DNA from: Jimgerdemannia flammicorona
Taxonomy: Eukaryota
Assembly (NCBI GenBank): GCA_003990765.1
Contig: RBNJ01000094.1
Coordinates: 1 to 42,170 of the forward strand
Reading direction: 5' to 3'
Length of the DNA stretch: 42,170 nucleotides
Position 1 is the first letter of the stretch. The number at the start of each line of letters is the position of its first letter. The notes beneath the pieces are model-generated. The model saw only the letters and a program-made list of their open reading frames with translations, was not told the DNA's origin and searched no databases. Below, piece by piece: positions 2,926 to 39,842 of this stretch. Both the position numbers and the translations under genes were made by a program.

Positions 2926-4410
2926 ATGTCGCAACTAGACCTCAACATGTTACATCTCAACATCTTACCCATACTACGTTTGAACAAATTCTTCATGCAA
3001 ATTATGGCTATTCTAAACCTAAATCCATATACACAGATGACATTGAAAGAAATCTTTACTGCAATTGGACAATACAACCTACCACATGTAGCCGGTACTA
3101 TGCAGGGTGCTATTCTCACTGCACATTCTATAGCTCGTTATAATGGTGTACCAGATCCTTTCGATGTCCAAGTATACCAAAGTGGATATATCCTCTTATC
3201 CATTGCCAAACATGTCCTCCCCGACAACGTTGTGGCGTCCTCACCGACAGCGGACGACAGCTGTGGATTATATACGACAAGTCCTAAGTGTACAGCCAGT
3301 AATATCACATACATTTCATCCGATACAAACTCCTCGATCAGTGTTGTGACTTCTTCGACCTCATCTATTGATTCAACAACTTACATGACAGCATCACGTT
3401 TTGCGATCGCCCAGCAAACCGGCTACATGTACCCATGCCTCCGTTCCGCGGGTCATACAAAGATTCTTCGAAATCAATGCGAAGATGTATTTTGTGTTGC
3501 TGATCTAAAATGATCAACAGCAATGACCACATTCGGACAGCTATTCGTGTTGGCAGATGGACATGGTGGTCGCGGGTGTACGCAGTTCTTTGTCAACACG
3601 ATCCCTAGTGCGATTGCAGAGCTGTGTGGTGGGTACGATTTGGAGGAGTTGGGTGACGCTAATATATAGCAATTGATAGCACACGAGATCAAGGAGCTAG
3701 TTAGGAGGCTTGATGACGAGTATTTGCATGGGTTGCACAACGGCGATGGGTGTACACTTATGCTGGCTATATTTCTGGGTGACTCGTGGCTCGTGCAGGC
3801 AAACGTGGGTGACTCACGCACTATCCTCATGTCTGCACCAGATGGTGTCCACAATCTTGATATCAACTTCGCCTCACAAGACCACAAACCATACCTCGGA
3901 TATATTGCCAAAAACGTACTAGCGAATGGCGGCGAATTCGTAGATGTATAGAATCGGGTCATCAATGTCAATTCTAAACATTTCCAAGGTGGTATCAATA
4001 CAATAGCCACACTCCGGAATGTACGTATCAGGGTATCCAAGAATGGGACATCGATAAATGTGGGGAGATCATGTGGTGATGCTGTGTTCAAACAGAATCC
4101 GACTGCAAGGATCATATCATGCAAACCAGATATCACGTTTATTGACATTGGTGGATGACAGCAGCAACAGTGACAACAGTGGTTCCTGCTCATGAGTAGC
4201 GATGGTCTGATAGATCACCTAGGATGTGGACATGTTGTCGACACACAGAATAAATGTATCGCAATGGCTGTCGAGGACCTTGTTGAGGCTGGTGAGGAGT
4301 GTGGTTATATTGTTAAATATCTTTGTAATCACGAGGGCAATCCCAACTTCTTTTCGTCTGTAATTCAAGCATATGATGATTGTACTGTTATATTAGTTGA
4401 GATAGTATAG
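2926..4410 (+). pseudogene. PP2C/PPM-family Ser/Thr phosphatase with N-terminal extension, 5 in-frame stops
   Basis: Single frame joining ORFs 2926, 3673 and 4192. Motifs: CED, LFVLADGHGG, DGCT, ANVGDSR, DHKP, VGRSCGD, LLMSSDGL, DDCTVILV. Stops at 3511 TGA, 3667 TAG, 3949 TAG, 4156 TGA, 4171 TGA. Confidence 0.92.
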
Positions 4411-4419
4411 TGAATTTAC

Positions 4420-4506
4420 TGTAACATCAGTGTCGGGAAAAGTGCATTCACGTGGATGGGATAATCCCGTCCACGTGAATGCACTTTCCCCGACGCTGAT
4501 GTCACA
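4420..4506. repeat. Dispersed palindrome copy 1 (87 bp, centre 4463)
   Basis: TGTAACATCAGTGTCGGGAAAAGTGCATTCACGTGGATGGGAT-A-ATCCCGTCCACGTGAATGCACTTTCCCCGACGCTGATGTCACA. Confidence 0.97.
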
Positions 4507-4554: not shown

Positions 4555-5530
4555 ATGACTAACCAATGTGGATGCTACTGTTTTGAAAGCAGCTACAAAC
4601 TATGTCCGATCTCCAAACCGGTCCCTCTAGGTGTTGTTCGTACTCGCGCTGGAGCCAAAGGTGAGAGTTGTGTGTTATACTATTGTCTAGCCCTTTATTT
4701 ATTTCAATACTCCAGGTGTACAACCCTATAGATATCTTGAGGTGAATACCGCAATACAACTTCTGAATGAATGACTTGGGCATGGCTGGTCCTGCAAATA
4801 CAATGTAGATCATAGGATTGAGGTATTTGTTATGATGTCAATCCGTAAATTCATGTGGTCACGAAATACTAATCCAAATGTAGATGTTCCACAAATCCAC
4901 GGGATTGTGGGAGATTTATGTCGAAGTGACTGCCAAGTCCAAATACATCACGCCAAGCAACCAAACAATAGAACACGAAGTATGTATTTAGCTTACAACA
5001 GCTTCAACTACAACCACTGCTCCATCTAACATAATCTCAGGAATGTGGTGGATTTACACAATCCTCGCGGGTAAAAGGTACAGCGATGACAAATGCTAGA
5101 AAATCGGCCAACTCTGATGCGCTAAAACGAATTGCCGCAACATTCGGCATTACCGTTGTGGGCGAATCCGGCGATAATGATAACTATGTTGTTTGTGATA
5201 CGTTACATATGGCGGAGTTCCCATGCTCACACCTCGTTAATTTAAACATAATAGATACTGATCCCACCCCCCGTCTCTCCTCGCCCAAGTCAAGGTATTT
5301 GTCTCTTTCTTTTATATGTAGCTGTTTCATTTATATCCCATTATTAAGCTATACACATATTATTTTAGGATTGAACCGTATATTGATAGTGTTCAACAAC
5401 ATAGCACACACAGTACATACAGTAAGTATATATTGTACAAAATTAATAGAGCCGTATGGATATTAATTTTCCCACCACTTTCAAAATAGAATCCGATTCA
5501 GTTGATTATATAAATTACAACTGTCAATAA
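4555..5530 (+). pseudogene. Rad52/Rad22-family single-strand annealing protein, 6 exons, one premature TGA (4772-4774)
   Basis: Exons 4555-4660, 4716-4822, 4884-4979, 5041-5294, 5369-5421, 5490-5530 with phase-consistent GT-AG introns. Protein includes VVRTRAGAKGVQPYRYLEVNTAIQLLNE*LGHGWS..GLWEIYVEVTAK..NQTIEHEECGG..AMTNARKSANSDALKRIAATFGI, matching the Rad52 N-domain pattern (R.G..G....Y......I...NE.FG..GW..HED.G.G..KARKEA.TD.LKRA...FG). Confidence 0.85.
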
Positions 5531-5616
5531 ATAATATGTTTGGACATATGATCACAAATAAAGAAGACTTATAAACAGCTTGTAATTGAACAGCTTTATA
5601 CGTTGTTCACTACAAT

Positions 5617-7179
5617 ATGTCAACTCTCGCAGAAACACTATCTATGCCATTTATGGCTTTCAAACTCAATACAACAAATCCTATGATCAGCTCAGACAAT
5701 CTCACCAAACTCATCACTAGCAATAATGATATATGGACACTGTTGCCAAAAATGTTTCAGAAGATAGAGGAATTGTATCAAATTCGCACTTTTACTGCTG
5801 ATGGTAAAGTGACCTTTAGATATGGCGGGGACACGCCTTCGATGACTATCATCGTAAATACCATGGGTGCATATCAGACAACAACCAATGCCATGTCGCC
5901 AGGTACCAACGCAATTTACCAATCTATGGTACAGAAGCCATATGCATACCCATATGAGTCCCCATTCCCGAGGACCTCTGATGGATATGACGATGACCTA
6001 TTACATATGACAATGTCTCAACCTGTTGATGACATGGACATCGATCTGGTGGAGGTTTCCGTTGAAGAATCGCTACACGAGGATTCCGCTACAGAATTGC
6101 TACACGAGGATTCCGCTGCAGAATTGCTACATGAGGTTTCCGCCACAGAATCGCTACACGAGGTTTTCCCAGCTGATACAGAATTGCTACACGAGGTTTC
6201 CCCAGCTGACGCAGAATTGCTACATGAGGTTTCCACCGCAGAATTGCTATACGAGGTTTCCGCCACAGAATTGCTACACGAGGTTTTCCCAGCTGATGCA
6301 GAATTGTTACATGAGGTTTCTGCCACAGAATTGCTACACGAGGTTTCCACCAGAGAATCGCTACACGAGGTTTTCCCGGCCGATGCAGAATCACTACACG
6401 AGATTTTCTCAGCTGACACAGAATCGCTACATGAGGTTTTCCCAGCCGCAGAATTGCTACACGAGGTTTCACAAGTCAAAACAACACCCAGACATGGGCT
6501 CAGAACTCAGAGAGAAACTGCTACCAAAAGAGCAGATGACCCAACCAGAGCACGCCATAGACGACGACATGTTACAAACGGCCGGAGACAAATTAGTTGC
6601 AATTCGAATGAGACATCTTCAGAATCTGAGACAAGAAGTGACACAACAGCAGAGGAGGAGGAGTGTTTGTAGATGCTGCAAATTTTACATGCTATATATA
6701 CACACGCCAGGTGTATAGATCCAGACCAACCATTGGCCACCAGGATACGGCCAGAGAAGTTTATCAAATTGCCCATAGTGCAATCTGCGAGGTCTATCTT
6801 GGACAATGTGATGAATTGGTATAATCAGTTAGCGTCCAAATGTATTTTGGGTAGTATAGGGTTACGCCTTTATAGTATGAGCATCTGTGTCAAATATCTA
6901 CTATATCCGACTGATCTGAACAATTATCAATTGGGGTCATGGAGGGCGGTGTCCAATCAGCTCACCATACAGTACAATCAGCGCAACGCCAACGAGCTTG
7001 GTAAGTGGATTAGGTGTGGGTGGTGGTATCTCGTCTTGGCCAAGCTCTTCAACAGTGTATCTGTTGCGGCGTCATTGTGGAGAGCCACTCATATGTCAAA
7101 GATAACAAATTCAGAATTTAATGAACTGGTGACATATCTACGAATGGAGGACTGTGTTGTAGGTATATTTTTTTTATAG
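5617..7179 (+). pseudogene. Hypothetical protein with acidic tandem repeats and C-terminal helical domain; one in-frame TAG (6670-6672)
   Basis: ORFs 5617-6672 and 6673-7179 are in the same frame, separated only by a TAG. Confidence 0.65.
6064..6472 (+). repeat. Coding minisatellite, 14 copies of E(L/S)L(H/Y)E(V/D/I) units of 27, 30 or 33 bp
   Basis: Core CAGAAT(T/C)GCTACA(C/T)GAGGTTT repeated; all unit lengths are multiples of 3. Confidence 0.95.
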
Positions 7180-7746: not shown

Positions 7747-8850
7747 CTAAATTGTCAAACATTCAACTCCAAATAATTTTACCGGAATACATCCAAGCAC
7801 AAGTGGTATCAAGGGCTGTAGTTGTGGGGCAGACTCACCCACACGCCACATGTCAGTGTGCACAACAACTAGATTACCATGAAAGATCTGTTCGAGGATC
7901 GCATTGAATACAGAGTGTGCCACCGTGCCGAGATCTGTGTCGTGACTCTGCATAACATATTGTGGTACTTTGTTGTTAGCACAGGCCAACCACACATGAC
8001 CGCGTGCAATTTCAGGAAATGCGGCATTGTGGGGCAATTCGTTGTGGTACTCATTGTCATATGCACAGGACTCGAGCAGCTGTGGTTGTGAGCATTTGCG
8101 GACCACTGCAGTAAACAACAAAGCCATGCTACAGACAGTGCAGAATGCCAGCCCAGCCTGCAGCTGTGTATGGTACTGTGGTAGAATCATCCCATCAGGT
8201 GCCCGCGTGTATGGGACCTTAGCATCGACCAGAACAGATGCGAAGAAGTTGGGATCCTGGTCTCGAGGACACATCATCCCATCCACATTGTATCCCATCA
8301 CCACAAGTGCATCAGGTGAGTACCGACAGTGCTGTACGACCTGTAGACACGTGCCACGACCCATGATGTCACAGCAGTACTGTAGCTGCATATACGCGAA
8401 TGCCAGATCCTCTAACATCCGGCCCCATCCACACGCGCGTCTGCCAAACTCGCTGAACGCTTGTATTATGCCTGTCTTCAGGCTGACCAGGCTGCGGAAT
8501 GCCGCAGAGTTTGTAGGCGACGTTGCTGCGAGTGCATCGGAGCCTCCGAGTATGTGTCTAATCAGTTCATACCACTCGGGCGAGTGCTGCACCAGCGGCG
8601 GAAACATATTGACAAATTCGATGAGAATTTGTCGCAGCATGGCTCTAATGGGCGCTGTTGCTGTGGTGCAAAGGCAGACATTGCCAATGGTCTCCAATAT
8701 GCTGCTGTCGTCATGTGACCACCCAGACGTTGTTATCAGTGAACGCGTCTCCTGCATTAGCACCGTGAGCAGATGCTGATCGATCAGCAACAGAATCGTG
8801 TGGGGATGCACATCCAAGTTGATTGGTACGAATTTCTGCATTGCAAACAA
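7747..8850 (-). CDS. Hypothetical protein (~365 aa; may extend past the TAG at 7747 to ~7645)
   Basis: Long GC-richer ORF immediately downstream of the EME1-like gene. No motif recognised. Confidence 0.5.
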   Translation of the reverse strand: MFAMQKFVPINLDVHPHTILLLIDQHLLTVLMQETRSLITTSGWSHDDSSILETIGNVCLCTTATAPIRAMLRQILIEFVNMFPPLVQHSPEWYELIRHILGGSDALAATSPTNSAAFRSLVSLKTGIIQAFSEFGRRACGWGRMLEDLAFAYMQLQYCCDIMGRGTCLQVVQHCRYSPDALVVMGYNVDGMMCPRDQDPNFFASVLVDAKVPYTRAPDGMILPQYHTQLQAGLAFCTVCSMALLFTAVVRKCSQPQLLESCAYDNEYHNELPHNAAFPEIARGHVWLACANNKVPQYVMQSHDTDLGTVAHSVFNAILEQIFHGNLVVVHTDMWRVGESAPQLQPLIPLVLGCIPVKLFGVECLTI

Positions 8851-8868: not shown

Positions 8869-9702
8869 TTAAGTTGCTTTAAATACACGTCGTACTCGAA
8901 AAACATCAAGTATGCGCTGCATGATCTTGTCATGCAATCTCGTCCGGCTGACTACTACATGCACTAGCTTCTGCCGCACGGATATGTCATTGTGAGTATC
9001 GACAAATGTGTAAAATGAATAAAGGTCATGGAATTCGGCGACAAACGCAACAGCAGTTGCATGTGATATGTCTGGAATCTGTATCAGAAAATCTCGAAAT
9101 GCATGCTGACCGAGTCGTGTCTTGGGGACATGGACTATGGCCAGATAATCCTCAGGCAATGCCTTTGACCGATCCTTTTGAGCACATTTCAGCAGCCGTG
9201 CAACTGTGGTTGCTGTGTCTGCAATTGTTGTAGTTCTACACACGACAACATCATCACAACATAACTCCAATGAGATTGTTATGTGGTCGATATCTACAGA
9301 TGCACCCTCGAACAACAGGTAGATCTGCTGATTGGGGAATCGCATTTTTAGATTGTTGACATCGGTTGTCAGCCTATCGTGTGTTGTGTAGAGAATGACA
9401 ATGACACCCTTTTGTCGTGTGTCATTGTTGTTGTCACCACAATCCCAGCAAAGTATGCAGTAGAATGATGGTGATGGCCCATCGAGTTTGCGCCATTCGA
9501 ATACATCCACGTGCACACGTATTTTCGCTTCCAGTATCGACACTGCAGGTGTGTAAAATAGAGTGGGTGTCTGTGTGTGGGCAATGGCAGTGGTAGTGGT
9601 AGCAATACCAACAATGGTTGATGACACTCGAGAGTAAAAATGGCCCCCTCTTAAAACCTCTTCAGGGGATGGAAATTCAAAGTCGTCATCATCATCCGAC
9701 AT
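8869..9702 (-). CDS. EME1/Mms4-like protein (ERCC4-type fold without catalytic motif, plus C-terminal HhH region)
   Basis: Starts MSDDDDDFEFPSPEEVL. Core LKMRFPNQQIYLLFEG..VVVCRTTTIADTATTV. C-terminal FLIQIPDISHATAVAFVAEF..L...Y..RTRLHDKIMQRILDVF matches the EME1/MUS81 HhH pattern. No ERK motif. Confidence 0.7.
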   Translation of the reverse strand: MSDDDDDFEFPSPEEVLRGGHFYSRVSSTIVGIATTTTAIAHTQTPTLFYTPAVSILEAKIRVHVDVFEWRKLDGPSPSFYCILCWDCGDNNNDTRQKGVIVILYTTHDRLTTDVNNLKMRFPNQQIYLLFEGASVDIDHITISLELCCDDVVVCRTTTIADTATTVARLLKCAQKDRSKALPEDYLAIVHVPKTRLGQHAFRDFLIQIPDISHATAVAFVAEFHDLYSFYTFVDTHNDISVRQKLVHVVVSRTRLHDKIMQRILDVFRVRRVFKAT

Positions 9703-10231
9703 CTTGTATATTGAACGACTACTAGTGATTACTGGATATATATGTGTATGTGTGTGTATTGACAAAATAGGATCGTTGACTAGACGCAAGCCATTCAACT
9801 TGTGCAGGTTATGATCGGTTCAACAGTTTATTCATTTGATAGAATGATTTGATACTACTATAAAATGGTACCACATAGACCTGTAGCCACAGCAGCTACA
9901 GCTTGTAACAATAGTAGCATTGTTGCATTTGTTGACAATGTGTGTATCATTTCATTCATGGTTAAATACACTAAGTCATTGGAGTTAATATGCTCAGGTT
10001 GTGCCATAGGGGTGTAGTGGAGACTGAGTGGTGTGAATTTATATACATACATACCATTAGTCTACATGACATACTGAGTAATATTATATAAAAATAAATA
10101 CGATGACATTATACACATATTAGATTCCAAACACGTCTTGTCCCCGACGATGGTGTCATTATAAATTTGAAATGCGGTCACAACATGTAAAGAAATATAA
10201 ACCATGGTAAACTGTCTTAAAAAGCTACAAG

Positions 10232-10696
10232 ATGGCAATACAACGGAGACAAGCGATTGTTACTGGGGTGGATTCAACAACAATCCTTCAACCAACAGAT
10301 GCAATGATGGGGTCAAAATTAGGAGACCATCTCTGCAGTCATCTTGCCACAGAACTGTTGGAGTTTCAACGACTGGATGATTTTCTGCAGGTGTTTAAAT
10401 ACAAACTCAGATGGCAAATGTCTGGTGGGAATAGGAAACCCGGTGTTATCATCATGCTAGACAAGAAGGAGTATTGGAAATTCATCTGTCGCGGTATGCA
10501 AGTTGTCGATGATCTCGCAGACCTGAAAGCGACATTTCCAGACCACTGTATATGTATAATTCTGCAGGGTTTGACTAAATCTGTAAGAATAAACCAACGG
10601 ATAGTTGACGAGTGTAATGCCCATGAAATCGTTATTGAGAGGTCAAGAAATTCTCCAATAACGATTGAACGGGTCATCCAGTATTTGGCAATGTAG
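10232..10696 (+). CDS. Second, stand-alone ERCC4/EME1-like domain protein
   Basis: KPGVIIMLD..DDLADLKATFPDHCICIILQG aligns with KGVIVILYT..DVNNLKMRFPNQQIYLLFEG of the neighbouring gene. Confidence 0.55.
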   Translation: MAIQRRQAIVTGVDSTTILQPTDAMMGSKLGDHLCSHLATELLEFQRLDDFLQVFKYKLRWQMSGGNRKPGVIIMLDKKEYWKFICRGMQVVDDLADLKATFPDHCICIILQGLTKSVRINQRIVDECNAHEIVIERSRNSPITIERVIQYLAM

Positions 10697-13717: not shown

Positions 13718-13795
13718 TGTGATGTTGTCGTTGGGGAAAGTACATTCACGTGGACAGGATTATCCCATCCACGTGAATGCACTTTCCCCGACGCT
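13718..13795. repeat. Dispersed palindrome copy 2 (centre 13761; right arm shorter)
   Basis: TGTGATGTTGTCGTTGGGGAAAGTACATTCACGTGGACAGGAT-T-ATCCCATCCACGTGAATGCACTTTCCCCGACGCT. Confidence 0.97.
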
Positions 13796-17347: not shown

Positions 17348-20300
17348 ATGCCAAATAATAAGCAACCGCAACAATTTGATGATAGTAAAAACAGACGGAT
17401 ACGACACAACTCCAACCAACCACCGCTGCTACTACACCGCCTGCATTGGATGTGCCCACAGGCTCCGATCATAAACTGTGAGAGCGATGAACTCATGTTT
17501 CAGCAGATGGATATTCGCGTAGAGTTTTGCAATGGCGAGGAGATCGTGATCATGATTGGAACAACTATTGAGGGGTATAGTGTTATGTGTCGGGTGTGCG
17601 GATTTAGACTATATTTTTATATCTGCGCGCCCAACACTGTCCAACGGGACAATCTACCATTGTTGGTAGCATGGCTGCAATGGTATGTAAATGTGTCTGT
17701 GTGCAACTGTAGGATTGTTGATAGTAGAGACATATACAACTACACAGGGTCAGGCTTGGAACCATTCATTAGGTTCACCACTGCAACGGACGCCACTAGA
17801 CAACAACTGGTGAATTTTATACAGAATTGAACAGTCTTTGGTCCGCCCAGTTGCACCATTGTGCGTGATGGCAAATTGTATAAAAGCGATGTGAGTCCGG
17901 ATCTGCGATTCATGGTCGACCACACGATAACCAGGGCCGGATGGGTGCGAATCCCTGCTGGAAATTACATGTTGTGTGTCTCACGGACATCACACTGTCG
18001 GTATGAAGTCGAAACAGACGTCAACGCAATCCAGAGCGTGCCCTACAACTCCTGTGACGCGGGTTCATGCATCGCGCCCTTGCGGGTACTGAGCTTCGAT
18101 ATCGAGTGTCGCGGTCACAAGGGCATTTTTCCGGAGCCCGAACATGACCCTGTCATACAGATTGGCTGTGCTGTGGCTGTGTTGGGTGTGGCAGACCCAC
18201 CCAAACGCGTTGTGTTTGTGCTGGGGGGGTGCACCATGCCACTCGACGATTGCGAAGTGCGGGTACACACCTCTGAGAAGGCACTCCTGCTCGACTGGTA
18301 CCGGTTTGTGGTGTACGAGGTCGATCCAGACGTGCTGACAGGCTACATGATTACCAAGTTCGACATCCCATATCTGATTAACCGTGTGTGTGCATTGGGT
18401 ATTGAGCATACATTCGCACAGCTGGGCCAGATTGTCGACAGGGAAACCACAATCAACCAGAATGTTACAAAGACCAAGGCATATAGTATCAACAACACAA
18501 ACAAAATCGACATCGCGGGCCATCTACTGCATGATATCTATGATATGGTCTGTCTCGATTACAAGCTCCCTGGTGGAAACAAACTCAATGACATCTGCAA
18601 GCACTACCTTGATGGTGAAATGAAGGTGGACCTACACCACAGCATGATCACGCCGCTGCACGACGGCAGTAGCGATGACAGACGAAAACTAGCCGAGTAC
18701 TGCATATAGGACGCGACACTACCATTACTACTGATGGCGCGATTTGCGAGTATGACTAAGTATATTGAGCTGGCGTGCATCACAGGTGTACCATTCGCAT
18801 ATTTGTTACTGCACAGCCAGCAGATCCGGGCCATGTCACAATTCTATCGAAAGACACGTGAACTGAACTATCTCATTCCTGTATCCGATCCTGTCAAGGG
18901 TGTTATCGCAAATGGGCCACAGTACCAGGGCGCGAAGGTGCTCGACGCGACCCCTGGCTACTACCAAGTGCCAATCTGCATGCTTGACTACAGCTCGCTG
19001 TACCCGACCATCATGATCGACAACAATCTGTGCTACAGCACAATCGTCGACACTACCACGATTGTGCGTCTGCAGCTTGTCAAGGATGTAGACTACATTA
19101 CAATCAGGGGTAACGAAGCTGATGCCACAACCGACCATCACTTTGTAACCCCATTACAATGCAGGGGCGTCGTGCCACAGATTCTTACAACACTACTTGA
19201 CTGCAGGAACGCGGTCAAGAAAGAGCTTAAAGACGAAGGCGACGCTCTGAAACGTGCAATTTTAGATGCGCGCCAGCAGGCAATGAAGCTCTGTGCAAAC
19301 TCACTCTACGAGCTGACAGGCGTTGCCGGCGGAAAGCTTGCAAGTCTTGCAGTCGCCACCAGTGTTACAGCGAGTGGTCAAGGCATGATCAAACGGGCGA
19401 AATCGATGATTGAATTTACCTTTACCATCACAAAAGGCGAGAAACACGATGCCCAGGTGGTGTATGGCGACACAGACTCTGTGATGGTTAATTTTGGACC
19501 AATATCAGTTGCAGACACAATCGAACTCAGCAAACGTGCTGCAGGATTGCTGTCCAACATACCCGGTCATCGCGAGACGTTGAACTTCGAATGGGCATTC
19601 ATGCCATTCCTGCTTGTTGGTAAAAAGTGCTATGCAGGGCTGACGGGGGTCAATAACAGTTTGGTCATCAAAGGCATCCAGACTGTAAAGCACGACACAA
19701 GTGAGTATATTGCCACGACCGTTGAACGGTGTCTTGAGATCCTGTTTGCCAGCCCACAAGGTGGGCTCGATGCAATGACAATGCACATCAAGGACAAGAT
19801 CTGGGTGCTATTGCAAGATGAGCTTGATCCCGCTGTATTTGCTATTACAAAACAGTGGAATGCATCTCTGGTGTCGATGGCCCCAGGCCGACATGCACCG
19901 GGCCTAACAAATGGCACAGGCCCGCGCCAGAGAATCATGAAGGCTATGAGTTCAAAAATCCAACTACTGCTACAAGCAGATGTTCAACAGCAGCAGCCAC
20001 ACATCGCTGCTACCATCAGGAGTAGGTTAGTTGATGCGCCCGAATGTGGTGATCATGTCACATATGTGATTACAGCCAAAGCTGGAGGTGAGTGAGTGAA
20101 ATATACTAGTGTGATTATATATGAATATATATATATATGTGTATACTAATATTCAATAGTAAAATGTATAAGCAACAGGGCTGTACTGCTCCAGAGTGTG
20201 CTCGAGGATTGTCTGCCGATAGATCAGGACTACTACCTCCAGAGTTTGATACGACTACTGCTGACGATGTTCTCACCCGTGTTTGGTGGTGAAAAACGAA

Positions 20301-20392
20301 TGCATCGTGAAATATGTAAGTTTGCAGAATTTCGCAAATTCGCATGTATTTCATTCACTAATAATAATAATCATCATCAACATCACTGGTAA
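17348..20392 (+). pseudogene. Family B DNA polymerase, Pol-delta-like catalytic subunit; two in-frame stops (17828 TGA, 18707 TAG), one intron 20088-20159
   Basis: ExoI LSFDIECRGHKGIFPEPEHDPVIQI, ExoII PDVLTGYMITKFDIPYL, ExoIII YCI*DA, region II YQGAKVL..LDYSSLYPTIMIDNNLCYST, region III QQAMKLCANSLYELTG, region I YGDTDSVMV, and C-terminal VLEDCLPIDQDYYL. All in one frame. Confidence 0.96.
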
Positions 20393-21442: not shown

Positions 21443-21525
21443 TCACGTCATCGTCAGGGAAAGTGCATTTATGTGGATGGGATTATCCCGTCCACATGAA
21501 TGCACTTTCCCCGACAATGACGTGA
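21443..21525. repeat. Dispersed palindrome copy 3 (83 bp, centre 21484)
   Basis: TCACGTCATCGTCAGGGAAAGTGCATTTATGTGGATGGGAT-T-ATCCCGTCCACATGAATGCACTTTCCCCGACAATGACGTGA. Confidence 0.97.
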
Positions 21526-24229: not shown

Positions 24230-24312
24230 CCATGTCATCGTTGGGGAAAGTGCATTCACGTGGATGGGATTATCCCATCTACGTGAATGCACTTTTCCCA
24301 ACAATGACATGG
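24230..24312. repeat. Dispersed palindrome copy 4 (83 bp, centre 24271)
   Basis: CCATGTCATCGTTGGGGAAAGTGCATTCACGTGGATGGGAT-T-ATCCCATCTACGTGAATGCACTTTTCCCAACAATGACATGG. Confidence 0.97.
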
Positions 24313-24575: not shown

Positions 24576-24986
24576 ATGAAGAAACTACCGCAGTCTGTCA
24601 AACAACCACGTCAAACCAATGAGACCAAACAGTCTGCTGTAAGTAGAGGTATTAGTCCTGTTTAGTGCTACATGTCATACACACACACACACACACTGCT
24701 AAATCCGGATTTGTGCATTCTCCAGAACTGTATTGCCACAAGAAAAAGTAGGATGCGAATAAAGCAATGTACTCAAGAACAGAATAAACATATTGGAGTT
24801 CTGGAAGCCAAGATTATAGATCTTCTCAAAAAGAATGAAGAGTATCGTATACAGTTATCGACTGTGTTGACAGAAAATCATCTGTTTAAAACAACTATAA
24901 TGCCAATTGTCAAACATATTGTATTTGATCTCGAGAGAGATCAGGTTCCATCCCCATGTGACATGGCGCTGTTTGGGTTGTATTAG
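24576..24986 (+). CDS. Small bZIP transcription factor (2 exons; intron 24639-24725)
   Basis: Exon 1 MKKLPQSVKQPRQTNETKQSA, phase-0 GTAAGT..CAG intron, then NCIATRKSRMRIK (N-x7-R basic motif) and a heptad zipper LEAKIIDLLKKNEEYRIQLSTVLTENHLF. Confidence 0.75.
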
Positions 24987-27343: not shown

Positions 27344-30062
27344 TCATTCAGAAGTTTGTTTGCGTTTTGTTTCTGCTGCGACATGATCTCTTTTTAAGAG
27401 TACCGTCATTCATCTACAACACATATCTGGAGTTCTACCTGGAATGTCCACCAAAATTGTTATCCAACTGCATCCATGCTCATTGTGACATTGGTGCAAC
27501 AGTATATCTTCGTCAGATGTCCATTGTGTCTTCTTCTTAATCGATACACCTAAAGCATTTTCTCATCTATATTGATAGTTATGACTCTCCTTCCCTGGAA
27601 TCGTAGATGCTATCTTCTCCCACTGACGACCATGTAGTGTATATGCCTTCCACAACAGTTTGTCATCATCCTTTGTCCATGTAGTAGTAGTTTTGATATC
27701 GCTTGTTACAGCTGTTGAGATATATCCTCTAGGCTTAGTACATAGATATCTGTAGATATTATACAATTACAAATTAGAATATAGGCATATATTATATTTC
27801 TGTAAAATTCAATAATAGCATACCTAACCAAGGCCTCTCTCTTTTGTATATTGGGAACTGTTTGAATAATATCATCAATTATAGTAGATGATACACCAAC
27901 AACGACTGGTCCATTTTCTATTAAAATTGTCGTAGCTCGTTGTTCAAGCTCTGCGGCAGTTGTCTGTTTAGATATCTCATAATGTTCAAGTTTGAGTGTG
28001 CGCACTCTTATAAACCACAATAGCTTTTGGTATTGTTTGAGCAGATCAGGTGCCTCTTTGGTCTAATAAATAGTAAGAGAGTGTATATATATGTGAGGAG
28101 ATGATGATGATGTATTAGATATTCTAAAAAAATAAAACCCTTACTAGATAGTGCCATCTTCGTATCCCTAACGGATTTAGTTTTTTTTTTAATTTAGCTA
28201 CATCTTCCTTCCATTTAATGATGGTAGTATCTGTCTCTTAGAGTCGCTGTTGAGTTGTCTTGGATTGAAGTACAGGTGATGGGATCTGTACTAGTGGAGC
28301 CCTGAATGCAATCACATCATCGTGATGTTGTGCTGAGGCATCAGAACCTAACATCGCTCCCATTATGTTAACACCTACTGGTCGTGTATAGTACATATGT
28401 AACATATTAGATTTGGGTGAGTGATATAGTGCTTGCTTTGCTTTGGCATCTCCAACCCTCTTGGAAATTGCATCAGCTGCACTTCGGTGAAACATATAGG
28501 CTGAAAATGACTCTATATAAACAGAGTTCTTATTAGAAATATGAACATAGATTAATATACCATATATATACATTATTATATATACCTGCATATCCAGCCT
28601 TTTGTGCGATAAGTGATAAAAAACTATCAAACAAATTTGTTGTAAGAGGACTATTTCCAGCAGCATTCTGAAATACTGTAGTGTTCAGTATCTCTGGTGC
28701 CCATTCAATAGTGGTATATTTAGACTGAAATAGATCTTCCAGAGTTGTGAATGCTTTAAAGGCACTACATCGAATAGCCCAGGTGATAAGCATAATGATA
28801 GGACACAGGTCTAGTTTTTGGGCATCCTGTACTGGTTGTATAATCCATGAAAGTCTGTGTAATAATAATAATAATAATAATAAATTAATATAATATAAAT
28901 ATTTACATAGACCAATTATAAATATTATACATACGGTGCTTTGCCTCCTTTCACAGTACGAAATACTATTGTTGCATGGAAAACTGGACCCAGTTTATCT
29001 AATCCCTCATATGTCAGCTTGATGTCCTATATCAAATCATATATCAATATCTCTCAAATAATATTGTGTGTGTGTGTATGTGTTAATAAATAAATAAATA
29101 AAATACCAAACATACACTCCATTTCAAGGCTCTGTCATGTTGATGGTGTATAGTACTTGAAATAAGAGATCCTGGCCAGACGGCTGTAAACATCATTAAC
29201 AGCCACAGTGTAATGTGTTTAAATGTAAGATCCCAGTCACGGTTATTTTTGTGTGCCTCCTGCACCAAAACATGAAGCTCTGATTCACCAATAAATGTTT
29301 TAGGCTTTTGAGTTGTTGTAAGATTGCGCTGAGTTGCAATCATATCAACTGCCTGCAAAATAATATATGTATTTAATTTAGTTGATATGTATATATAATA
29401 AAACATCTCTATAAGTAATAATAATAACAATTATTCATACTTGGGTAATTTGTATTTTATCACCATCAGAGAGTTGAAAGTGTTCGACATCTTTCCATAG
29501 CTATAATAACAAATATTAGAACAAGTCTAAATAATATTATAAATAAAAAAACGAATTGGATAATATACATACTAGTTTTAGTAATAACGTCTTAGTTGTC
29601 ACTAAATATTCCTTCGACATAGGTGTTTTATTCGGGCTTAATGTTGTCATTGCTTTCGCAATCAGGAAGCTCTTTATATTGTCTGAGAATGAAATATAAT
29701 GTTAGTAAAAATAAATAAATAAATAAATATATGAGATGCTCGCAGATGTCAGCAATTATATTTTACATACCCACAGTCGCATGTTGAATAGTCCATGCTG
29801 CCGCCTTTGAAACTCCATTAGCTTCCATATACTCGTTCCATTGTCTAGTAACTAGGTCGTGGTTCCGTTTGGTTAATGGTGATCTCGTATCAAAGTCGTT
29901 GGCTTGTGTACTTAGAGTCTTGATTTCCGTGAGTTCGCTGGCACCCAGGAGTGCAAATTTGTTCAATCGTCTTGCACCGGGGGGTTTGGGGCTCACCCGT
30001 CTCGCCGCACGGGACAATTCTGTGCTCTTGGTTGAAGATCCTCTCTGTTTTACAGGAGCCAT
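27344..30062 (-). pseudogene. Multi-exon tyrosine recombinase, DUF3435/Starship captain-like, with two C-terminal Myb/SANT repeats; inactivated
   Basis: Motifs in order: LLMMFTAVWPGSL (R>W of RPG), ALKWS|DIKL, FRTVKGGK, LDLCPIIMLITWAIRCSAF, SAYMFHRSAA, ALYHSPKSNMLHMYY. Then WTKDDDKLLWKAYTLHGRQWEKIASTIPGK..YR*ENAL and WTSDEDILL..HGCSWITI..IPGRTPDMCCR*. Introns 28513-28585, 28063-28144 and 27729-27823 are phase-consistent. Three in-frame stops. Confidence 0.8.
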
Positions 30063-30158: not shown

Positions 30159-30273
30159 ACATCCGGTCCACATCCCCGTGCATACTGGGGCACACGCCGG
30201 ATGTGCCGGTGTAATCCGGATTACGAACACGTGTCCGCAATATTGCGGACTACTACGATTAATCTGACCCGGG
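30159..30273. promoter_or_regulatory. CpG-rich cluster of adjacent short palindromes upstream of the recombinase
   Basis: ACATCCGG(30159)..CCGGATGT(30197), GTAATCCGGATTAC 30211-30224, ACACGTGT 30227-30234, GTCCGCAATATTGCGGAC 30233-30250, GATTAATC 30257-30264, CCCGGG 30268-30273. Regulatory function is inferred. Confidence 0.55.
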
Positions 30274-30642
30274 ACCCACGGGTGTCGCGGGTGTCTCAAA
30301 ACTTCAGGCTCGAGTTTGGGAATGGTGTCGTGAGTCGGAATGTGTGTCGCGGATGTGTTGGTGGAATAGGAATGGATGGGAAATCAGTTTATAATTTCAT
30401 TTTGTAAGAGTGTTGGAAGCGATGGGACACATTATGAAATCGGCGCTTTGATTTAAAGTGCGTGAGTCGGGGACGACTTTAAGAAACTTTCAAACAAGAG
30501 TTATTACCTTCCCGCCCACTCATTTGGACGGTCGATTTTGGTGAGTTAGACTGATATTGTATAATGGATAATGCATATGTGCAGATAAAATCGTCACACC
30601 GTTATTGCAGGCCAATTAAATAAAAATAGCATACAATTACAT

Positions 30643-32549
30643 CTAAATCTGCTTCACTTTCTTCATAGGCTGGTTCACAATTCCCATCAACATCCTCGCA
30701 ACCTGAACCAGTGCGCTTCCTATTCCAAACACTGTTCCAACCAATGCTATCATCAATACCGCATACAAATCGTAATTCCCGGCTTTCCACCACGTCATAC
30801 TCTTATCCGGCGATTGCAAGTGCATTAACCCAGTTCCTCCATACATCACCTCCTCCACTATATCCGCCCCACGCTCTACCCGCCGTGACCCGATCTGTGC
30901 CAGCGCCTGCATCCGGCTCATGTTTCCCGCGAAAAATCCTTCGGGGTCCTCGACCAACCGCCGGATCTTCTCAGTCACCTCCGTCACCGTCGCCGTGTCA
31001 CGATCAATTTGTAGCGCCACACCGGCGCGATGGAGTTTGACCGCATTCATAGGCTGATCTCCGAAGTATGGTTGCACCAGTAGCGGGGTCCCAGTATACA
31101 ACGCCTCGTGCGTCGACTCCACGCCGCCATGCGAGATGAAGAGCCGAGTCGACGTGTGGTTTAGGATTGCCTGCTGTGGTGCCCATGACGTGAAATGGAA
31201 CGCCGGATGTCCGTTCGCCAGCAGGTCCGCTGTCTTCAGCTCGATCGTCCCGTTCACATTTCCGCTCACCACAGTGATCGTCAATGGAAAATCGGCCGAC
31301 CGCGTCTGCACAATCGCCCAGATCACGCCGTCTACCACGCCCGTGTGGACAGAGGTTGCCAGGGCCGTTAGGAGCACGCCCAAAGTTCGCGAGGACGGAG
31401 GGACTTTTTGGCCGAAGGCAACATAGATTACGCGACTGTGTTTCGTGAGGAAGGTGCTTAATGGGGGAGTGAGGCTCGGGTATGCATCACCCATCACAGG
31501 GCCAATGAGGTGCACAAGGGGACCAATTGGGCGGGGAACCTGGAGGATGTAGGAGGTTTGCACATCGGGAGAAAAGTAGGGTGACGAGGTCAAACACTAA
31601 TTCAATCTGTTTCGAACCAAAAAGATGAGAACAAATCTGTTACCTCGAAACCAAAGAACGTATTAACTAGTTTCACGCTATTCTCCCACCGCCCAGTCAA
31701 CACGCCCCACACTGGCGGGACGCCCATCTTGACACGTTGCTTGTTCAGCTCCGCTATGCTGGGATAGAAATAATACAACGCTTGGGTGGGCATAATGATC
31801 TGGGAGTACAACCGTTGCAGGAGGTTCTGGTTCTTGGTCGTCGGCTCGATTGATAAAACATTATTGGTGTAGGGCGCGCTGCCGTCTGTAGAACGAACGA
31901 GATCGAGACGGACGGATCAATAAAAGACATATCGCATGAGCGAACCATATTGAAGGGGCGGAGGAATGGAAAATCCTGTCCATTACGTACCTGGAGACAT
32001 TATTACAGATGTCAAGATCACGAACGGAATCCCTGCCATATGCGCTGCATCAAAACAAACCTCAAGCATGCTCTCACACAACACGACGTCTGGCTTAATC
32101 TCGTCAAATATTTTTCTATACCCCAAATAGAGCCGTTCATACGCCGCATTCATATCCCTCATCATCGTGCTCAGTTGCCGCACATCCAAATTCCTCCCCT
32201 CGTCAAACATTAATTTCCGAATTTTTTCCTTATCAATGACCAACGGCCCGATTGACACAGTCGGGAGACCCCACGGACGAGCGAGATTCAGCTGCCCGTC
32301 GTTAGTCACGTACGTGACCTGGTACCCGCGCTCGCGCAGGATCACTCCGATGTCGAAGCCCGCCTTAATGTGCGAGATTCCACCCGTTTGGGACGATATC
32401 ATCACATGCTTGGAAGTGCGGTAGGAACCGGACACGAGGCCGTGCGCCGCGCTGGGAGTGGGGGCTCGGAAGAGGAGGAGGAGGAGGAGGAACAGGAGTG
32501 GTAGGATACGCAGGTGGCGCGGCCAGGTTGACCAATGTTGGATGGGCAT
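30643..32549 (-). CDS. UDP-glycosyltransferase (GT1/UDPGT) with signal peptide and C-terminal TM helix; exons 32549-31991, 31885-31644, 31539-30643
   Basis: Signature WAPQQAILNHTSTRLFISHGGVESTHEALYTGTPLLVQPYFGDQ, N-terminal GGISH..LRERGYQVTYV, hydrophobic leader and KKVKQI tail. No stops; CpG-rich. Confidence 0.95.
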
Positions 32550-33649
32550 TTGTGAAAATGCTGTTAGGAGAAAGATATTGGTGTTTGTTTTGTTTGAAAG
32601 CATGCAATGTGCTGTATATATATACTTTACAGAAATCGAAGTTCTCGTACATCGGGTTCGCGCCCCATGAGTCATGTTTAGGAGACGGCTACTAATTAGC
32701 CGAGCCGCGGTGCGGAAGCACGGATATTTCTGGCTGGCCAAGTCGACGTTTTTTCATATTGCCCTTTCTATCTCGTGAGTCTAGCTATATCGTGAGTCAG
32801 GGTCAGGGTCTTCACTGACCGAGAGCACCGCACTCGCCCACATCGGTCGTAAATGATTGGTTGTGGTCATTTTGCTCGAGTGGCGCGACCTTTACGACGT
32901 ATAATATTCGAGAACCTCATCTGATAAGTCGTCTGTTTTCGCTTATCAGATTGCGTCTGATAATTTTAATTATCGCCTATGTTTCCAGTATATTTCTTTT
33001 CCGTGCCGGGGATGCCCTACATTGGGTGTCACAAAATTATCTGATCACGTTATGACCTCGAATCAAATTTACTGGAAGCTTCAAATGCTGTCCCCAATTT
33101 CCTATCCGCTATAATTTGTCGGTCACAGTTACTCATTGTAGCTTTTTGACTACTGCGACACGCAGCTCCGGTTTAGCAAATTATAAATCTCAAACCTCAC
33201 AAACTATAATTGTGACATGAATACGCCCACCGAATTCGCGAACCTATAAACAATGCGGACTACCTCGGAAACATGTTTTGACCCTTTTTCGCTGGCTCTC
33301 CATTTCACGCTCTTCCCGTGTGTGTCACTGATCTTCCCCTCTTGTGTAGCAGCCTTTTGCAATCCACTGCCAGTGTCCTGGGAGTCGGTTTTCTGCTTTT
33401 TCAGAGATGCCTTATGTTTGAGATCATCATTGGAATCATTTTGTCAAGTATTCTTTCTTTTTGTACAGTGTGGGGATGACCTGGAATTGCTGGTCTTCTC
33501 AGAAGTATCCCTGAATATATCTTGCAGTCATTTGGGCTGTAGAAAGGTTTCACTACTATCTCACAGGAAGGTACTTCACTATTCAGACAGACTATTCAGC
33601 TCTTACTTAGCTGCTAACTACAAGTGAGGTTAATGGAATCTATGCTAGA

Positions 33650-36910: not shown

Positions 36911-38400
36911 ATAACAAAATATCATTAGGGAAATATAATTAAGAAATTTTATAGTATATGATCTTATAAAAAGTAAAAGTTTGAAAGTTTAAATTAATAT
37001 TTTAGAGACAAAATTATCTTTTTAGAAAAGTTATAATAGTTGATCTAAATTAGAATAAAATTAAGAGAATAGATATTTAATTATAGTATCTGAATCTAAT
37101 TTTCAAATATAATATAGTATATATTATAGATATAAGATAACTTATAGCTTATATAGCTACTACATATATAGCTAGTAAATCTATATAAATAATTCAGTAT
37201 TTAGAGTAAATAAACCTCAGATTAAAATAGTTCAAAATAAAAAAAACTAATAAGCCTACAAGTAAGTCTTTTGAGATTCTTATGATAGATAGTTCTGTTT
37301 TTTTTTTTTTTTTTAGCAAACATCATTCTGAATGATCTTTATTTAGTAAAGGTTACAGAAGTATTTGAAATTTCCCATAGGATCTCAGATAAGCAGAAAT
37401 TCTAATTGATAGAGTTAACTTAGACAAGTTCTTTCTTTATAGTCTAGTTCATTCACTCTATTATTTTATAAGTTTGAAGATAGTACAATATAGTTCTTTT
37501 TAGATAAATCTTATAAATTTATATATAAGTTATAACTAACTTATAAATGAATTTTCTATACCTCAGTCAGAGATAAGTTCTTTTGAAGATATATATATAT
37601 TGAAGTGTAAGACTATAAAAGAGGACAATAATAATCAAGACATTAGTAATTTCTATTGAGAAGACTTTGGGCCATTTGATCAAATTTTCTATAAATACTA
37701 AAATATATTTTTTCTTTTATCAGAAAAAAAAACTTCAGTTTACATTTACTAGTTCATATTTATAGCTATTTGAGTTTATATTATTTAATATAGTTCAAGT
37801 TTACAGCTTTTAGTTCATATTACTATATATTTCGATCTATATATTTACTATTTAGTTCATATGGCTGTATCTTTAAGAAAATAAATCTGTTAGTATCTAT
37901 TAGTTTATATCTACAGTTATTCAAGTTTATATCATAAAATTATGGTTTGTATATTGTGTTTCTCTGTCTCTATTCTTAGTAATTTAGTTCATAAAATATG
38001 TAGAAATTTGAGACTTAGTTCTGAACTGACAAGTATGGCAATACATATCTAAATAAGAAAAATGATAAACAACTAGAGAATATATCTGTGACTCAATTAT
38101 TCTAATTTCCTAATAATATTCTTAATACTATCAATAAAATCCAGATATTTATTACTATTGTAATGGTGACCCCAGAATGATGACATCAGCACAGGAGACA
38201 GCCTTTCTTTACAAGCCACCAGATCAGAGTACAAGAAGATCATACAGTATATGAGATGAGCAATAATGACCAACTGTGAGTAATTGTGACTACAGCACAA
38301 GCATCCTGAAGAATATAAAAGAAGGATCAAGGAACTGCAGTAGTAGCAACCAATAAGAACCACCAATCCCAAAATAGCTCAAAGACTTACTACAAACAAA
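36911..38400. other. AT-rich decayed TE sequence, probably continuing the relic
   Basis: Same C/G-depleted composition as 33650-35329, grading into less-decayed sequence after ~38160. Confidence 0.45.
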
Positions 38401-39205
38401 ATGCCTGCTGCCCGCCAAACCTCAAGGTCAAGGAATCATCAAGGTATCTCGGTCGAGGAAAGAATGTTCCAAGACATCAGAAGAGCCATGAGGAACCACT
38501 CAAGAAGGACTCCTAGTGTTAACCTGGGTACTGCAGACCCCTATCACTTCATTCTCTACCGCCGCGAAATGGAAACAAGGATCACCATCGCCACCAAATG
38601 CCTCCAAATGTGGCAGGAGTACAAAATAGGAAACCTCCTCTGCCAGGAGTTCCCACAGGCCAGCCCTCAAGAGCTACAAGATGCCACCCCCATGGACCTA
38701 CATAAGGCAAGGACAGCAAAGAAGATCTATCAGATCTTCAGACATGCACCATGGTCGATCCCCAACTTAGAGTATGTTAGAGTCTCAGACTTCAGAGACC
38801 TGTCATCTGGCCGTATCAATGCACTAAAAGCCAGGGTAGCTACAGAAGCCCAGTCCACCATCACCCTCAACAGCGAAGAAGTAGAAGACTTCTGGCACCC
38901 TATCCTTCAGGACAACTCAGACCAATTCCTGCAAGGATTGATCTCAGTATTCCAAGACCCAAGCATCTGGGTTAGATCTCCCCAAGACCCCACATTTGTC
39001 CCCTATTTTGTGGAAGAGAACCTCATAGACTGGAGAGCCCCAGACCTTGTTCCCGACTTCTCCGCCACAGCCGAACGTGATGACGTCATTGATGACATCA
39101 TCCCGCGCAACATCAAAGCATGCGAAAATGACGAAGTACATGAGATGCACGGCCTGCATGACGAATTCGTGGACCTCATCTCCTTCAGTGATGATGATGA
39201 TGATA

Positions 39206-39249
<44 letters not shown>

Positions 39250-39279
39250 GCTCCTATGATCCTGAACTTTCTGCTCTAA
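38401..39279 (+). CDS. Retroelement-associated accessory ORF: helical domain plus poly-Asp tail
   Basis: Intact 292-aa ORF with ARTAKKIYQIF..IPNLEYVRVSDFRDLS and a (GAT)n run at ~39190-39246. Ends 6 bp before the LTR-like repeats. Confidence 0.65.
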
Positions 39280-39285
39280 GTTCTT

Positions 39286-39722
39286 TGTTATACTGGATAA
39301 TGCCAGCATCGGTATTCTCATGTAACACTGGATAATGCCAGCACTGGTATTCTGAGGTGACGCGAAATTGTTCCAGTACTGGCATTTTGATGTGATACTA
39401 AATAATGCCAGCCCTGGAACTCAGTAGTTTTAGTTATTGGAATTTATATTTAGCTTTATATCTTAGCAACCATTGAATTATATTTTGTATAAATACCTCT
39501 CTTATTTCCTCTGAAATAAAGTCAGTCAAGTTCACCTACACATACTTCCTTGCAAGCAATCTAAGAGATAACAAGACAGTTAAAGATAAGAAGTTTGAGG
39601 ACTATAAGACCTTGGGAAGGCACTCCAATAAGAACTTACTTATAACAACTTGAGTTAGTCTAAGAGATATACCTTGAAGAGAATCTGGCATATTTGAAGG
39701 ACTCAGCGACCACTACGTGACA
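39286..39722 (+). repeat. 5' LTR of a younger LTR retrotransposon (left edge uncertain)
   Basis: TG start candidates at 39286, 39321 and 39391. TATAAATA ~39488, AATAAA ~39515. Ends GTGACA at 39722, followed after 3 bp by PBS-like TGGTGCCCATTGG. Confidence 0.65.
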
Positions 39723-39725
39723 ACT

Positions 39726-39742
39726 TGGTGCCCATTGGCTGG
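39726..39742 (+). promoter_or_regulatory. Primer-binding site (tRNA not identified)
   Basis: TGG.. immediately after the LTR-terminal CA and upstream of gag. Confidence 0.55.
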
Positions 39743-39842
39743 TGATTCAAGATGAATCCCTCACTTTCAAGCTGAAAAACGAACAACTCCCACAACAACT
39801 ACCCTGACTACAAGAGTCACCCCTGCAAGAATTCAAGACAAG

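Follow-up and report, generated by a model that had tools for sequence, protein, structure and literature searches.

How do giant fungal transposons survive off the chromosome, reach several copies and gain cargo? This question is raised by a locus of Jimgerdemannia flammicorona, which we take to be an Endogonales fungus of the Mucoromycota, where an intron-split gene for a Rad52-like protein lies within a large repeat. The window analyzed here is a whole contig (C94; 42,170 nucleotides) of a 231-Mb assembly. For the better-known giant elements of fungi, a preprint shows a circular Starship intermediate (10.64898/2026.09.21.753150), and a recent review states that what double-strand-break repair contributes when Starships excise and integrate "remains elusive" (PMC13451438).

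A Rad52-type domain is encoded in split exons

The initial annotation described a six-exon gene that starts about 50 bp past a palindrome. In our model, 48 bases separate the 87-bp palindrome from the ATG at 4555, in agreement with that spacing. The gene comprises six exons and 218 codons and ends with TAA at 5528-5530 (Table 1). The five introns are all GT-AG, are 55 to 74 nt long and keep phase, and this part of the annotation stands. The frame itself is not open, with a TGA at codon 55, and the tail exons are uncertain.

Table 1. Coordinates of features in the window
Feature	Positions	Strand	Remarks
Palindrome	4420-4506		87 bp; arms of 43 nt, 91% complementary; between PP2C-like and Rad52-like genes
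Rad52-like gene, exon 1	4555-4660	+	Start codon; Arg/Gly hairpin region; intron-1 junctions not unique by profile score alone
Rad52-like gene, exon 2	4716-4822	+	Tyr...Leu-Asn...Gly-Trp motif; PF04098 profile 29-54, E 0.045 (below cutoff)
In-frame TGA, codon 55	4772-4774	+	Makes the window copy a pseudogene; stop at the same codon in 3 of 5 copies
Rad52-like gene, exon 3	4884-4979	+	Beta-strand region; no Pfam match alone
Rad52-like gene, exon 4	5041-5294	+	Ala-x-Lys-x-Ala-x-Ser-Asp-Ala-Leu-Lys-Arg helix; PF04098 over cutoff
Rad52-like gene, exon 5	5369-5421	+	Uncertain tail; GT-AG sites present in 4 of 4 copies covering them; no profile support
Rad52-like gene, exon 6	5490-5530	+	TAA at 5528-5530; frame differs in other copies
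YqaJ/RecE-like (lambda-exonuclease-family) candidate	7750-8838	-	2.2 kb from Rad52-like gene; possible partner
Palindrome	13729-13793
Pol-delta-like family B polymerase	17348-20392	+	Two in-frame stops; nearly intronless
Palindrome	21443-21525
Palindrome	24230-24312
DUF3435-like tyrosine recombinase, intron-split	27413-30062	-	Two Myb repeats; faces into element
Right end of element	30250-30306		Last shared base 30306; six copies with the same end

The annotation's assignment to the Rad52 family was upheld by Pfam. Exon 4 alone matched PF04098 (Rad52_Rad22) at 24.5 bits (E 2.8e-5; curated cutoff, 20.3 bits), with profile positions 93-128 on amino acids 107-140, and exon 4 of the copy on contig C20771 reached 26.2 bits. 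Exon 2, with X at the stop, matched PF04098 alone among 24,736 families; this match is below the cutoff, and it falls on amino acids 40-64, in the right order and at the right spacing relative to the match in exon 4. Exons 1 and 3 gave no Pfam match by themselves, and the PF04098 match ends at position 128-131 of the 153 in the profile. The spliced model was also scored against a profile of nine phage Sak-type proteins, which gave a single match of 32 bits over amino acids 31-140 (none of 200 shuffles exceeded 1.6 bits), a test that is partly circular because three of the nine proteins were picked through their likeness to exon 4. The model ending at 5530 scored 31.7 bits. Skipping exon 3 lowered the score to 26.6 bits; this exon contributes 5.4 bits and makes the match continuous across both motif blocks.

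Residues known to contact DNA were compared by hand. In the consulted part of PMC6137706, human RAD52 binds the single-stranded DNA (ssDNA) backbone through K152, R153 and R156 and stacks R55 on bases, and K102/K133 form an outer site. The inner-site residues K152/R153 align with K132/R133 of the spliced model, and the position of R156 is occupied by Ala. By an ungapped hand count, K133 of the outer site falls on R113; by a similar count, an Arg lies 11 residues before the Y65 equivalent, compared with 10 for human R55. The ESM Atlas gave a lead only: a Rad52 cluster ranked sixth for exon 4 (score 0.90; 148 shared features), behind three top matches that were unnamed clusters of 42 to 44 amino acids.

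The junctions were examined among 1,497 three-intron models with at most one stop, where those of the six-exon model scored 33.0 bits and ranked fourth. The acceptor at 4883 and the intron at 4980-5040 were fixed across the 15 best models, and all 15 retained the TGA of codon 55, which falls inside the conserved helix-GW motif. Splicing around the stop was rejected: the best of 217 stop-free models scored 25.2 bits, and removal of the TGA costs the Gly-Trp motif. The splice model might be a chance construction, given that exons 1 and 3 have no Pfam match alone and that the tail exons are ambiguous. The two ordered Pfam matches, the gap between the Sak-profile score and those of the shuffles, and the conservation of the splice sites of introns 1 to 3 in 14 of 15 copy-intron cases argue against this, and we give it next to no weight; for exons 2 to 4, it is largely refuted.

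Past about codon 150, the 3′ exons are ambiguous, and three models (218, 193 or 197 codons) fit. The last exon is covered by three other copies, and each of them carries an extra base near 5491 relative to the window. A GT donor at 5180 is present in three of the four other copies and absent from the window copy, and the 3′ part of exon 4 may hold a further intron (5180-5254) in these other copies. A model with an intron at 5188-5254 and a stop at 5466 was superseded by the one ending at 5530; the domain is identical in both. Since every tail model is short, ending within about 80 codons of the domain, the absence of a long mediator C terminus, as first proposed, holds.

The Rad52-like gene is multicopy and decayed

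A search of the assembly with exon 4 returned five candidates, all of which belong to the Rad52-like family (the window, C19751, C20771, C352 and C18386), and all five sit behind copies of the same PP2C-like gene. Stops within the domain number one in the window, one in C19751, none in C20771, two in C352 and four in C18386, where the first donor is also lost. The window copy is a pseudogene, and four of the five copies have stops. A protein record, P0121, resembles a sixth, mis-modelled copy. The PP2C-like gene (2926-4410) carries six stops in the window and is an open frame of 458 codons in C20771.

Between the window and C352, transitions account for 1,926 of 2,186 substitutions, 922 of them at CpG. 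Exon divergence exceeded intron divergence in all 10 copy pairs, with pN/pS of 0.47 to 1.07 over exons 1 to 4. As judged from these alignments, decay after insertion was probably driven by methylation (C to T) rather than by selection, of which there is no clear trace among the copies. The locus thus holds a Rad52-type domain with a short tail and spliceosomal introns, in several copies within a multicopy element and with neutral-looking decay. The five copies with the same neighbors support the earlier description of the annealase as element encoded. The locus is not the sole syntenic host RAD52: it has five copies, four with stops, a short tail and a position inside a repeat.

The gene lies in a giant element with a recombinase at one end

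Three contigs match the window at 76 to 88%: C352 (216-19029), C856 (6359-22667) and C2582 (20901-30078). C352 extends 12.9 kb further leftward and carries a palindrome site 5 kb or more outside the start of the window, so that the element unit is at least 35 kb long. The Rad52-like gene and the recombinase are linked on one contig only in the window. The match to C856 ends inside the neighboring gene, some 0.8 kb short of the Rad52-like gene. At about 15.6 kb of C856, a host class II tRNA-synthetase gene ends, and a truncated element copy starts a few bases past its stop codon. The left (second) end was not found on the contigs examined.

Two exons of the recombinase matched DUF3435 in order, both below the cutoff (E 0.0012 and 0.12), and both of its Myb repeats were over the Pfam cutoff. 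The shared right end lies at 30306 in the window, at 12170 in C3107 and also on C11354, C2582 and C720. Beyond it, four of the six copies continue into one codon position of paralogous CHAT-domain genes. Seventeen uninterrupted paralogues out of 19 other loci were aligned, two being omitted for a match that started late or at a contig end; 40 of 104 candidates were scored. The insertion falls just before a Leu-Ala-Phe-Leu-Ser-Ala-Cys motif of CHAT-domain/STAND-NTPase genes, which form a large paralogue family. The apparent targets of this giant element are putative cell-death or immune genes.

Candidate replication and recombination genes accompany the Rad52-like gene

The exonuclease candidate at 7750-8838 matched Pfam YqaJ across the profile with 17.5 bits (E 0.0052), below the cutoff of 22, and matched PHROG 434, a RecE-like exonuclease family, with E 1.5e-4. 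There was no useful match in the PDB. Single-sequence folds of this ORF and of 8872-9699 were unusable (pLDDT 37.8 and 38.9), a Foldseek search with predicted folds gave no match at E 0.001, and none of 67 metagenome pattern matches for the exonuclease candidate was confirmed. The polymerase gave Pfam matches of E 3.6e-44 and 2.8e-77; past the two closest records, its best matches are Pol delta at 40 to 44%. Neither a helicase nor a primase was identified in the window.

Unrelated cargo of the element includes glycosyl hydrolase, PP2C, BTB and TPR genes. The ORFs at 8872-9699 and 10232-10693 resembled ERCC4 by eye, an identity that neither Pfam and PHROGs nor searches of the PDB and pairwise BLAST supported. 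ERCC4/MUS81 and SAE2 domains over the cutoff are present on other palindrome-bearing contigs, which did not overlap the window element in our comparisons. Four such contigs (C5154, C1102, C5283 and C10114) encode SAE2/CtIP, ERCC4-MUS81, AAA ATPase and RNase III domains, together with BTB, ankyrin, F-box, fungal kinase and Crinkler N-terminal domains, and are read as further segments or sister elements. The ORF at 5617-6672 contains a tandem array of 27- and 33-base units that encodes an acidic repeat and varies among copies.

Palindromes mark intergenic sites of the element family

The window element contains four complete palindromes and three remnants, near 10138, 13532 and 17247, whose counterparts in another copy are complete; all seven lie between ORFs. 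Palindromes or remnants occur in the blocks matched by C352, C856 and C2582 alike, and the 60-bp core was scored at no fewer than 40 sites on 25 contigs. Ahead of the Rad52-like gene, the palindrome is complete in two of the five copies, shortened in one and without its core in two. It typifies the element family, marking many intergenic sites and not the Rad52-like gene specifically. A function as this gene's own promoter is unsupported, given the seven intergenic sites in the element and the 25 contigs. An inserted MITE is disfavored; one flank persists at most palindrome-free sites, as after hairpin deletion.

Each arm of the core contains CACGTG, and the core is often flanked by TGACGTCA-like words; we take these words in and around the core to be an E-box and CRE. 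A weak bZIP-like ORF lies in the element at 24666-24986. The palindrome core had no match in viral contigs of IMG/VR. The hrs of baculoviruses are repeats that are likewise palindromic and dispersed, contain CRE-like motifs and act as enhancers (PMC13513840), and by analogy the palindromes of the element might perhaps act as enhancers or origins. On contigs C6027, C7158, C9738 and C1343, palindromes delimit recurring blocks of some 700 bases whose order and orientation vary between contigs, as if the palindromes were rearrangement points. Behind the Rad52-like gene, a 63-base intergenic piece (5521-5583) is 89% similar to 6063-6125 of C6027, a palindrome-bearing contig that is otherwise unrelated to the window.

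A second Rad52-like family and the origin of the gene

A second Rad52-like family was found on contigs C27147, C335 (about 17.5-23.7 kb), C2478 and C18594. Like the window family, it has a Rad52 domain and is multicopy and decayed. It differs in its neighbors and is closer to cellular RAD52: its annotated protein P0124 is nearest yeast and human RAD52 (E 2.4e-12 and 9.4e-10), whereas the two families score only 11 to 12 bits pairwise. In both families (checked in two of two copies of the second), the homologous exon 2 has a phase-1 start and a phase-0 end, the latter exactly 13 codons past the Gly in Gly-Trp. This shared exon boundary favors descent from an intron-bearing fungal gene over a recent phage origin. 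Most likely, the window gene descends from an intron-bearing fungal Rad52-family gene acquired long ago. The second family adjoins a long broken frame with helicase-like motifs, seen by eye, and a PHROG "replication" family match (E 3.7e-8); this family is perhaps carried by another self-replicating element. The presence in a single genome of two unrelated, repeat-borne Rad52-like families suggests that such an association arose more than once.

A canonical host RAD52 was not found with PF04098, a phage protein, P0124 or short-motif queries, and all seven candidates from the PF04098 search of the assembly belong to the two repeat families. This result does not amount to absence, because the assembly is fragmented and was searched exon by exon. 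Yeast Rad52 matched the exon 4 profile with only E 0.71. Beyond one near-copy, no relative of exon 4 turned up: none of four candidates held up, and a search of 1.84 billion representatives gave three matches, the near-copy P0121 and two low-complexity chance matches. Pattern searches with exon 4 yielded no confirmed match among 406 in metagenomes and 76 in viral contigs (IMG/VR).

Comparison with known systems

The N-terminal domain of eukaryotic RAD52 (human 1KN0/5XRZ, yeast 8G3G; PF04098) resembles the window protein in its ordered motif blocks and K152/R153 equivalents, and the window gene, too, has spliceosomal introns. In contrast to eukaryotic RAD52, the window gene has a short, acidic tail of about 50 to 75 residues instead of a long C-terminal region, Ala at R156 and no match to the last part of the profile, and it is broken and multicopy in an element. 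Yeast Rad59 and Mgm101 are short Rad52 paralogues that likewise have a Rad52 domain without the Rad51-mediator tail, but they are single-copy cellular genes.

Phage Sak and Rad52-like annealases (Tank gp61, Thermus phage MN1) are of similar length. The best pairwise score, 22 bits in a set of 10, was with gp61 of Arthrobacter phage Tank, a "RAD52-like DNA recombinase," and an annotated exonuclease adjoins the annealase in two of the three phage loci viewed with wide flanks. Unlike these, the window gene has five introns and a fungal context, and its exonuclease candidate is not adjacent. The similarity is weak (exon 4 tblastn, E 0.8 or worse), and the phage set was chosen by that likeness. Rad52-superfamily annealases are well known on phages, and Erf and Red-beta have a Rad52-like fold but belong to other classes, as stated in part of PMC9870868. 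The analogy with phage Sak, Erf and Red-beta that was drawn initially holds for the predicted fold and the likely chemistry; it does not extend to origin.

Lambda Red alpha/beta, RecET, SXT Exo/Bet and herpes simplex virus (HSV) UL12/ICP8 also combine an annealase with an exonuclease on one mobile DNA, as the window does with its lambda-exonuclease-family candidate. In the window, by contrast, the two genes are not adjacent, the exonuclease match is weak and the context is eukaryotic and intron bearing. Roles proposed for such pairs, in the section of PMC11611040 consulted, are replication, concatemer formation and break repair.

The element resembles Starships in its inward-facing DUF3435-like recombinase at one end with a Myb fusion, its sharp boundary, its preferred target site (four of six copies at one CHAT position) and its large cargo. 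Its Rad52-like gene, replicative polymerase and dispersed palindromes have no reported Starship counterpart in the texts covered, and its DUF3435 match is below the cutoff. DUF3435/MYB hybrids are listed in PMC12256816, the main text of which does not contain "Rad52," "polymerase" or "palindrom." Starship recombinases are reported only from Dikarya in the portions of PMC11162782, PMC13465315 and PMC13451438 that were available.

Possible roles of the Rad52-like gene

We lean, by a modest preference, towards a fossil gene for a Rad52-superfamily single-strand annealing protein (SSAP) that came from the DNA-handling kit of a giant, recombinase-tipped element. Judging from its family, the intact protein would have formed rings, bound ssDNA and annealed it without ATP, and it would have lacked the long Rad51-loading region. 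The gene's context suggests a two-part system, as in lambda Red or HSV UL12/ICP8, in which the candidate 5′-3′ exonuclease would resect and the Rad52-like protein would anneal. Such a pair might repair or join the ends of the excised element, and annealing might prime recombination-dependent copying, to be extended by the element's Pol-delta-like enzyme. The role in replication, circularization or cargo capture named in the initial annotation is one that we infer. The stops in the domain of four of five copies, the lack of a clear selection signal, the Ala at R156 with the incomplete Pfam match, and the below-cutoff Pfam matches of the exonuclease and recombinase count against membership in such a kit. 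So do the linkage to the recombinase on the window contig alone, the many unrelated cargo genes and the failure to identify a helicase or primase in the window. A wider scenario, which we consider rather doubtful as a whole, is a self-copying, Starship-like tyrosine-recombinase giant transposon outside Dikarya, whose polymerase would derive from Pol delta and whose exonuclease and annealase, built from fungal genes, would form a phage-style pair. Its excised circle would be amplified by recombination-dependent replication from the dispersed palindromes, as a eukaryotic counterpart of replicating bacterial ICEs, and the Rad52-like protein could also bring in cargo by annealing host DNA into the element.

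The gene might instead be a host Rad52/Rad59-type gene captured by a Starship-like element as incidental cargo, with no part in replication or movement. Its introns, one at a position common to another fungal Rad52-like family, the mixed unrelated cargo and the lack of a selection signal among copies fit such a capture, as does the description of the Starship captain as necessary and sufficient for transposition in part of PMC11162782. We think it unlikely; a polymerase and an exonuclease candidate co-occur with the gene, which has diverged very far from cellular RAD52, as is more typical of genes that have long resided in an element than of newly captured ones. Still less probable is an integrated large DNA virus or a Teratorn-like virus-transposon composite, in which the annealase and exonuclease would serve recombination-dependent replication and the palindromes would be hr-like origins or enhancers. 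The nearly intronless polymerase, the exonuclease candidate, the BTB, ankyrin and F-box genes and the dispersed intergenic palindromes, akin to baculovirus hrs, speak for a virus. Against it, no capsid, packaging or RNA-polymerase match was found among the scanned ORFs of this incomplete element, the polymerase is nearest cellular Pol delta, the Rad52-like gene has five introns, and neither the palindrome nor exon 4 was matched in IMG/VR. Spread of a host RAD52, RAD59 or MGM101 paralogue by ordinary segmental duplication would sit well with the failure to find a canonical host RAD52 in the fragmented assembly. The sharp end of the repeat, tipped by a recombinase, its differing flanks and the broken state of most neighbors of the Rad52-like gene, such as the PP2C-like frame, make it very improbable.

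Under the SSAP reading, the intron-bearing, Rad52-type annealase gene of the element, together with the exonuclease candidate and the polymerase, provides concrete candidates for the job of maintaining, multiplying and loading a giant transposon. These genes hint at an element that was formerly in charge of recombining its own DNA. The window copy is dead and its function inferred, and most of the novelty lies with the element rather than with the Rad52-like gene alone. Our literature search found no Rad52-type gene in a fungal giant element within the texts covered; supplementary Starship cargo tables may hold such domains.

Sequences beyond the right end

Two features lie outside the element. 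A UDP-glycosyltransferase gene at 30643-32753 is likely a host gene, and the repeat at 38150-42170, which carries zinc-knuckle and dUTPase ORFs, is probably an LTR retrotransposon.
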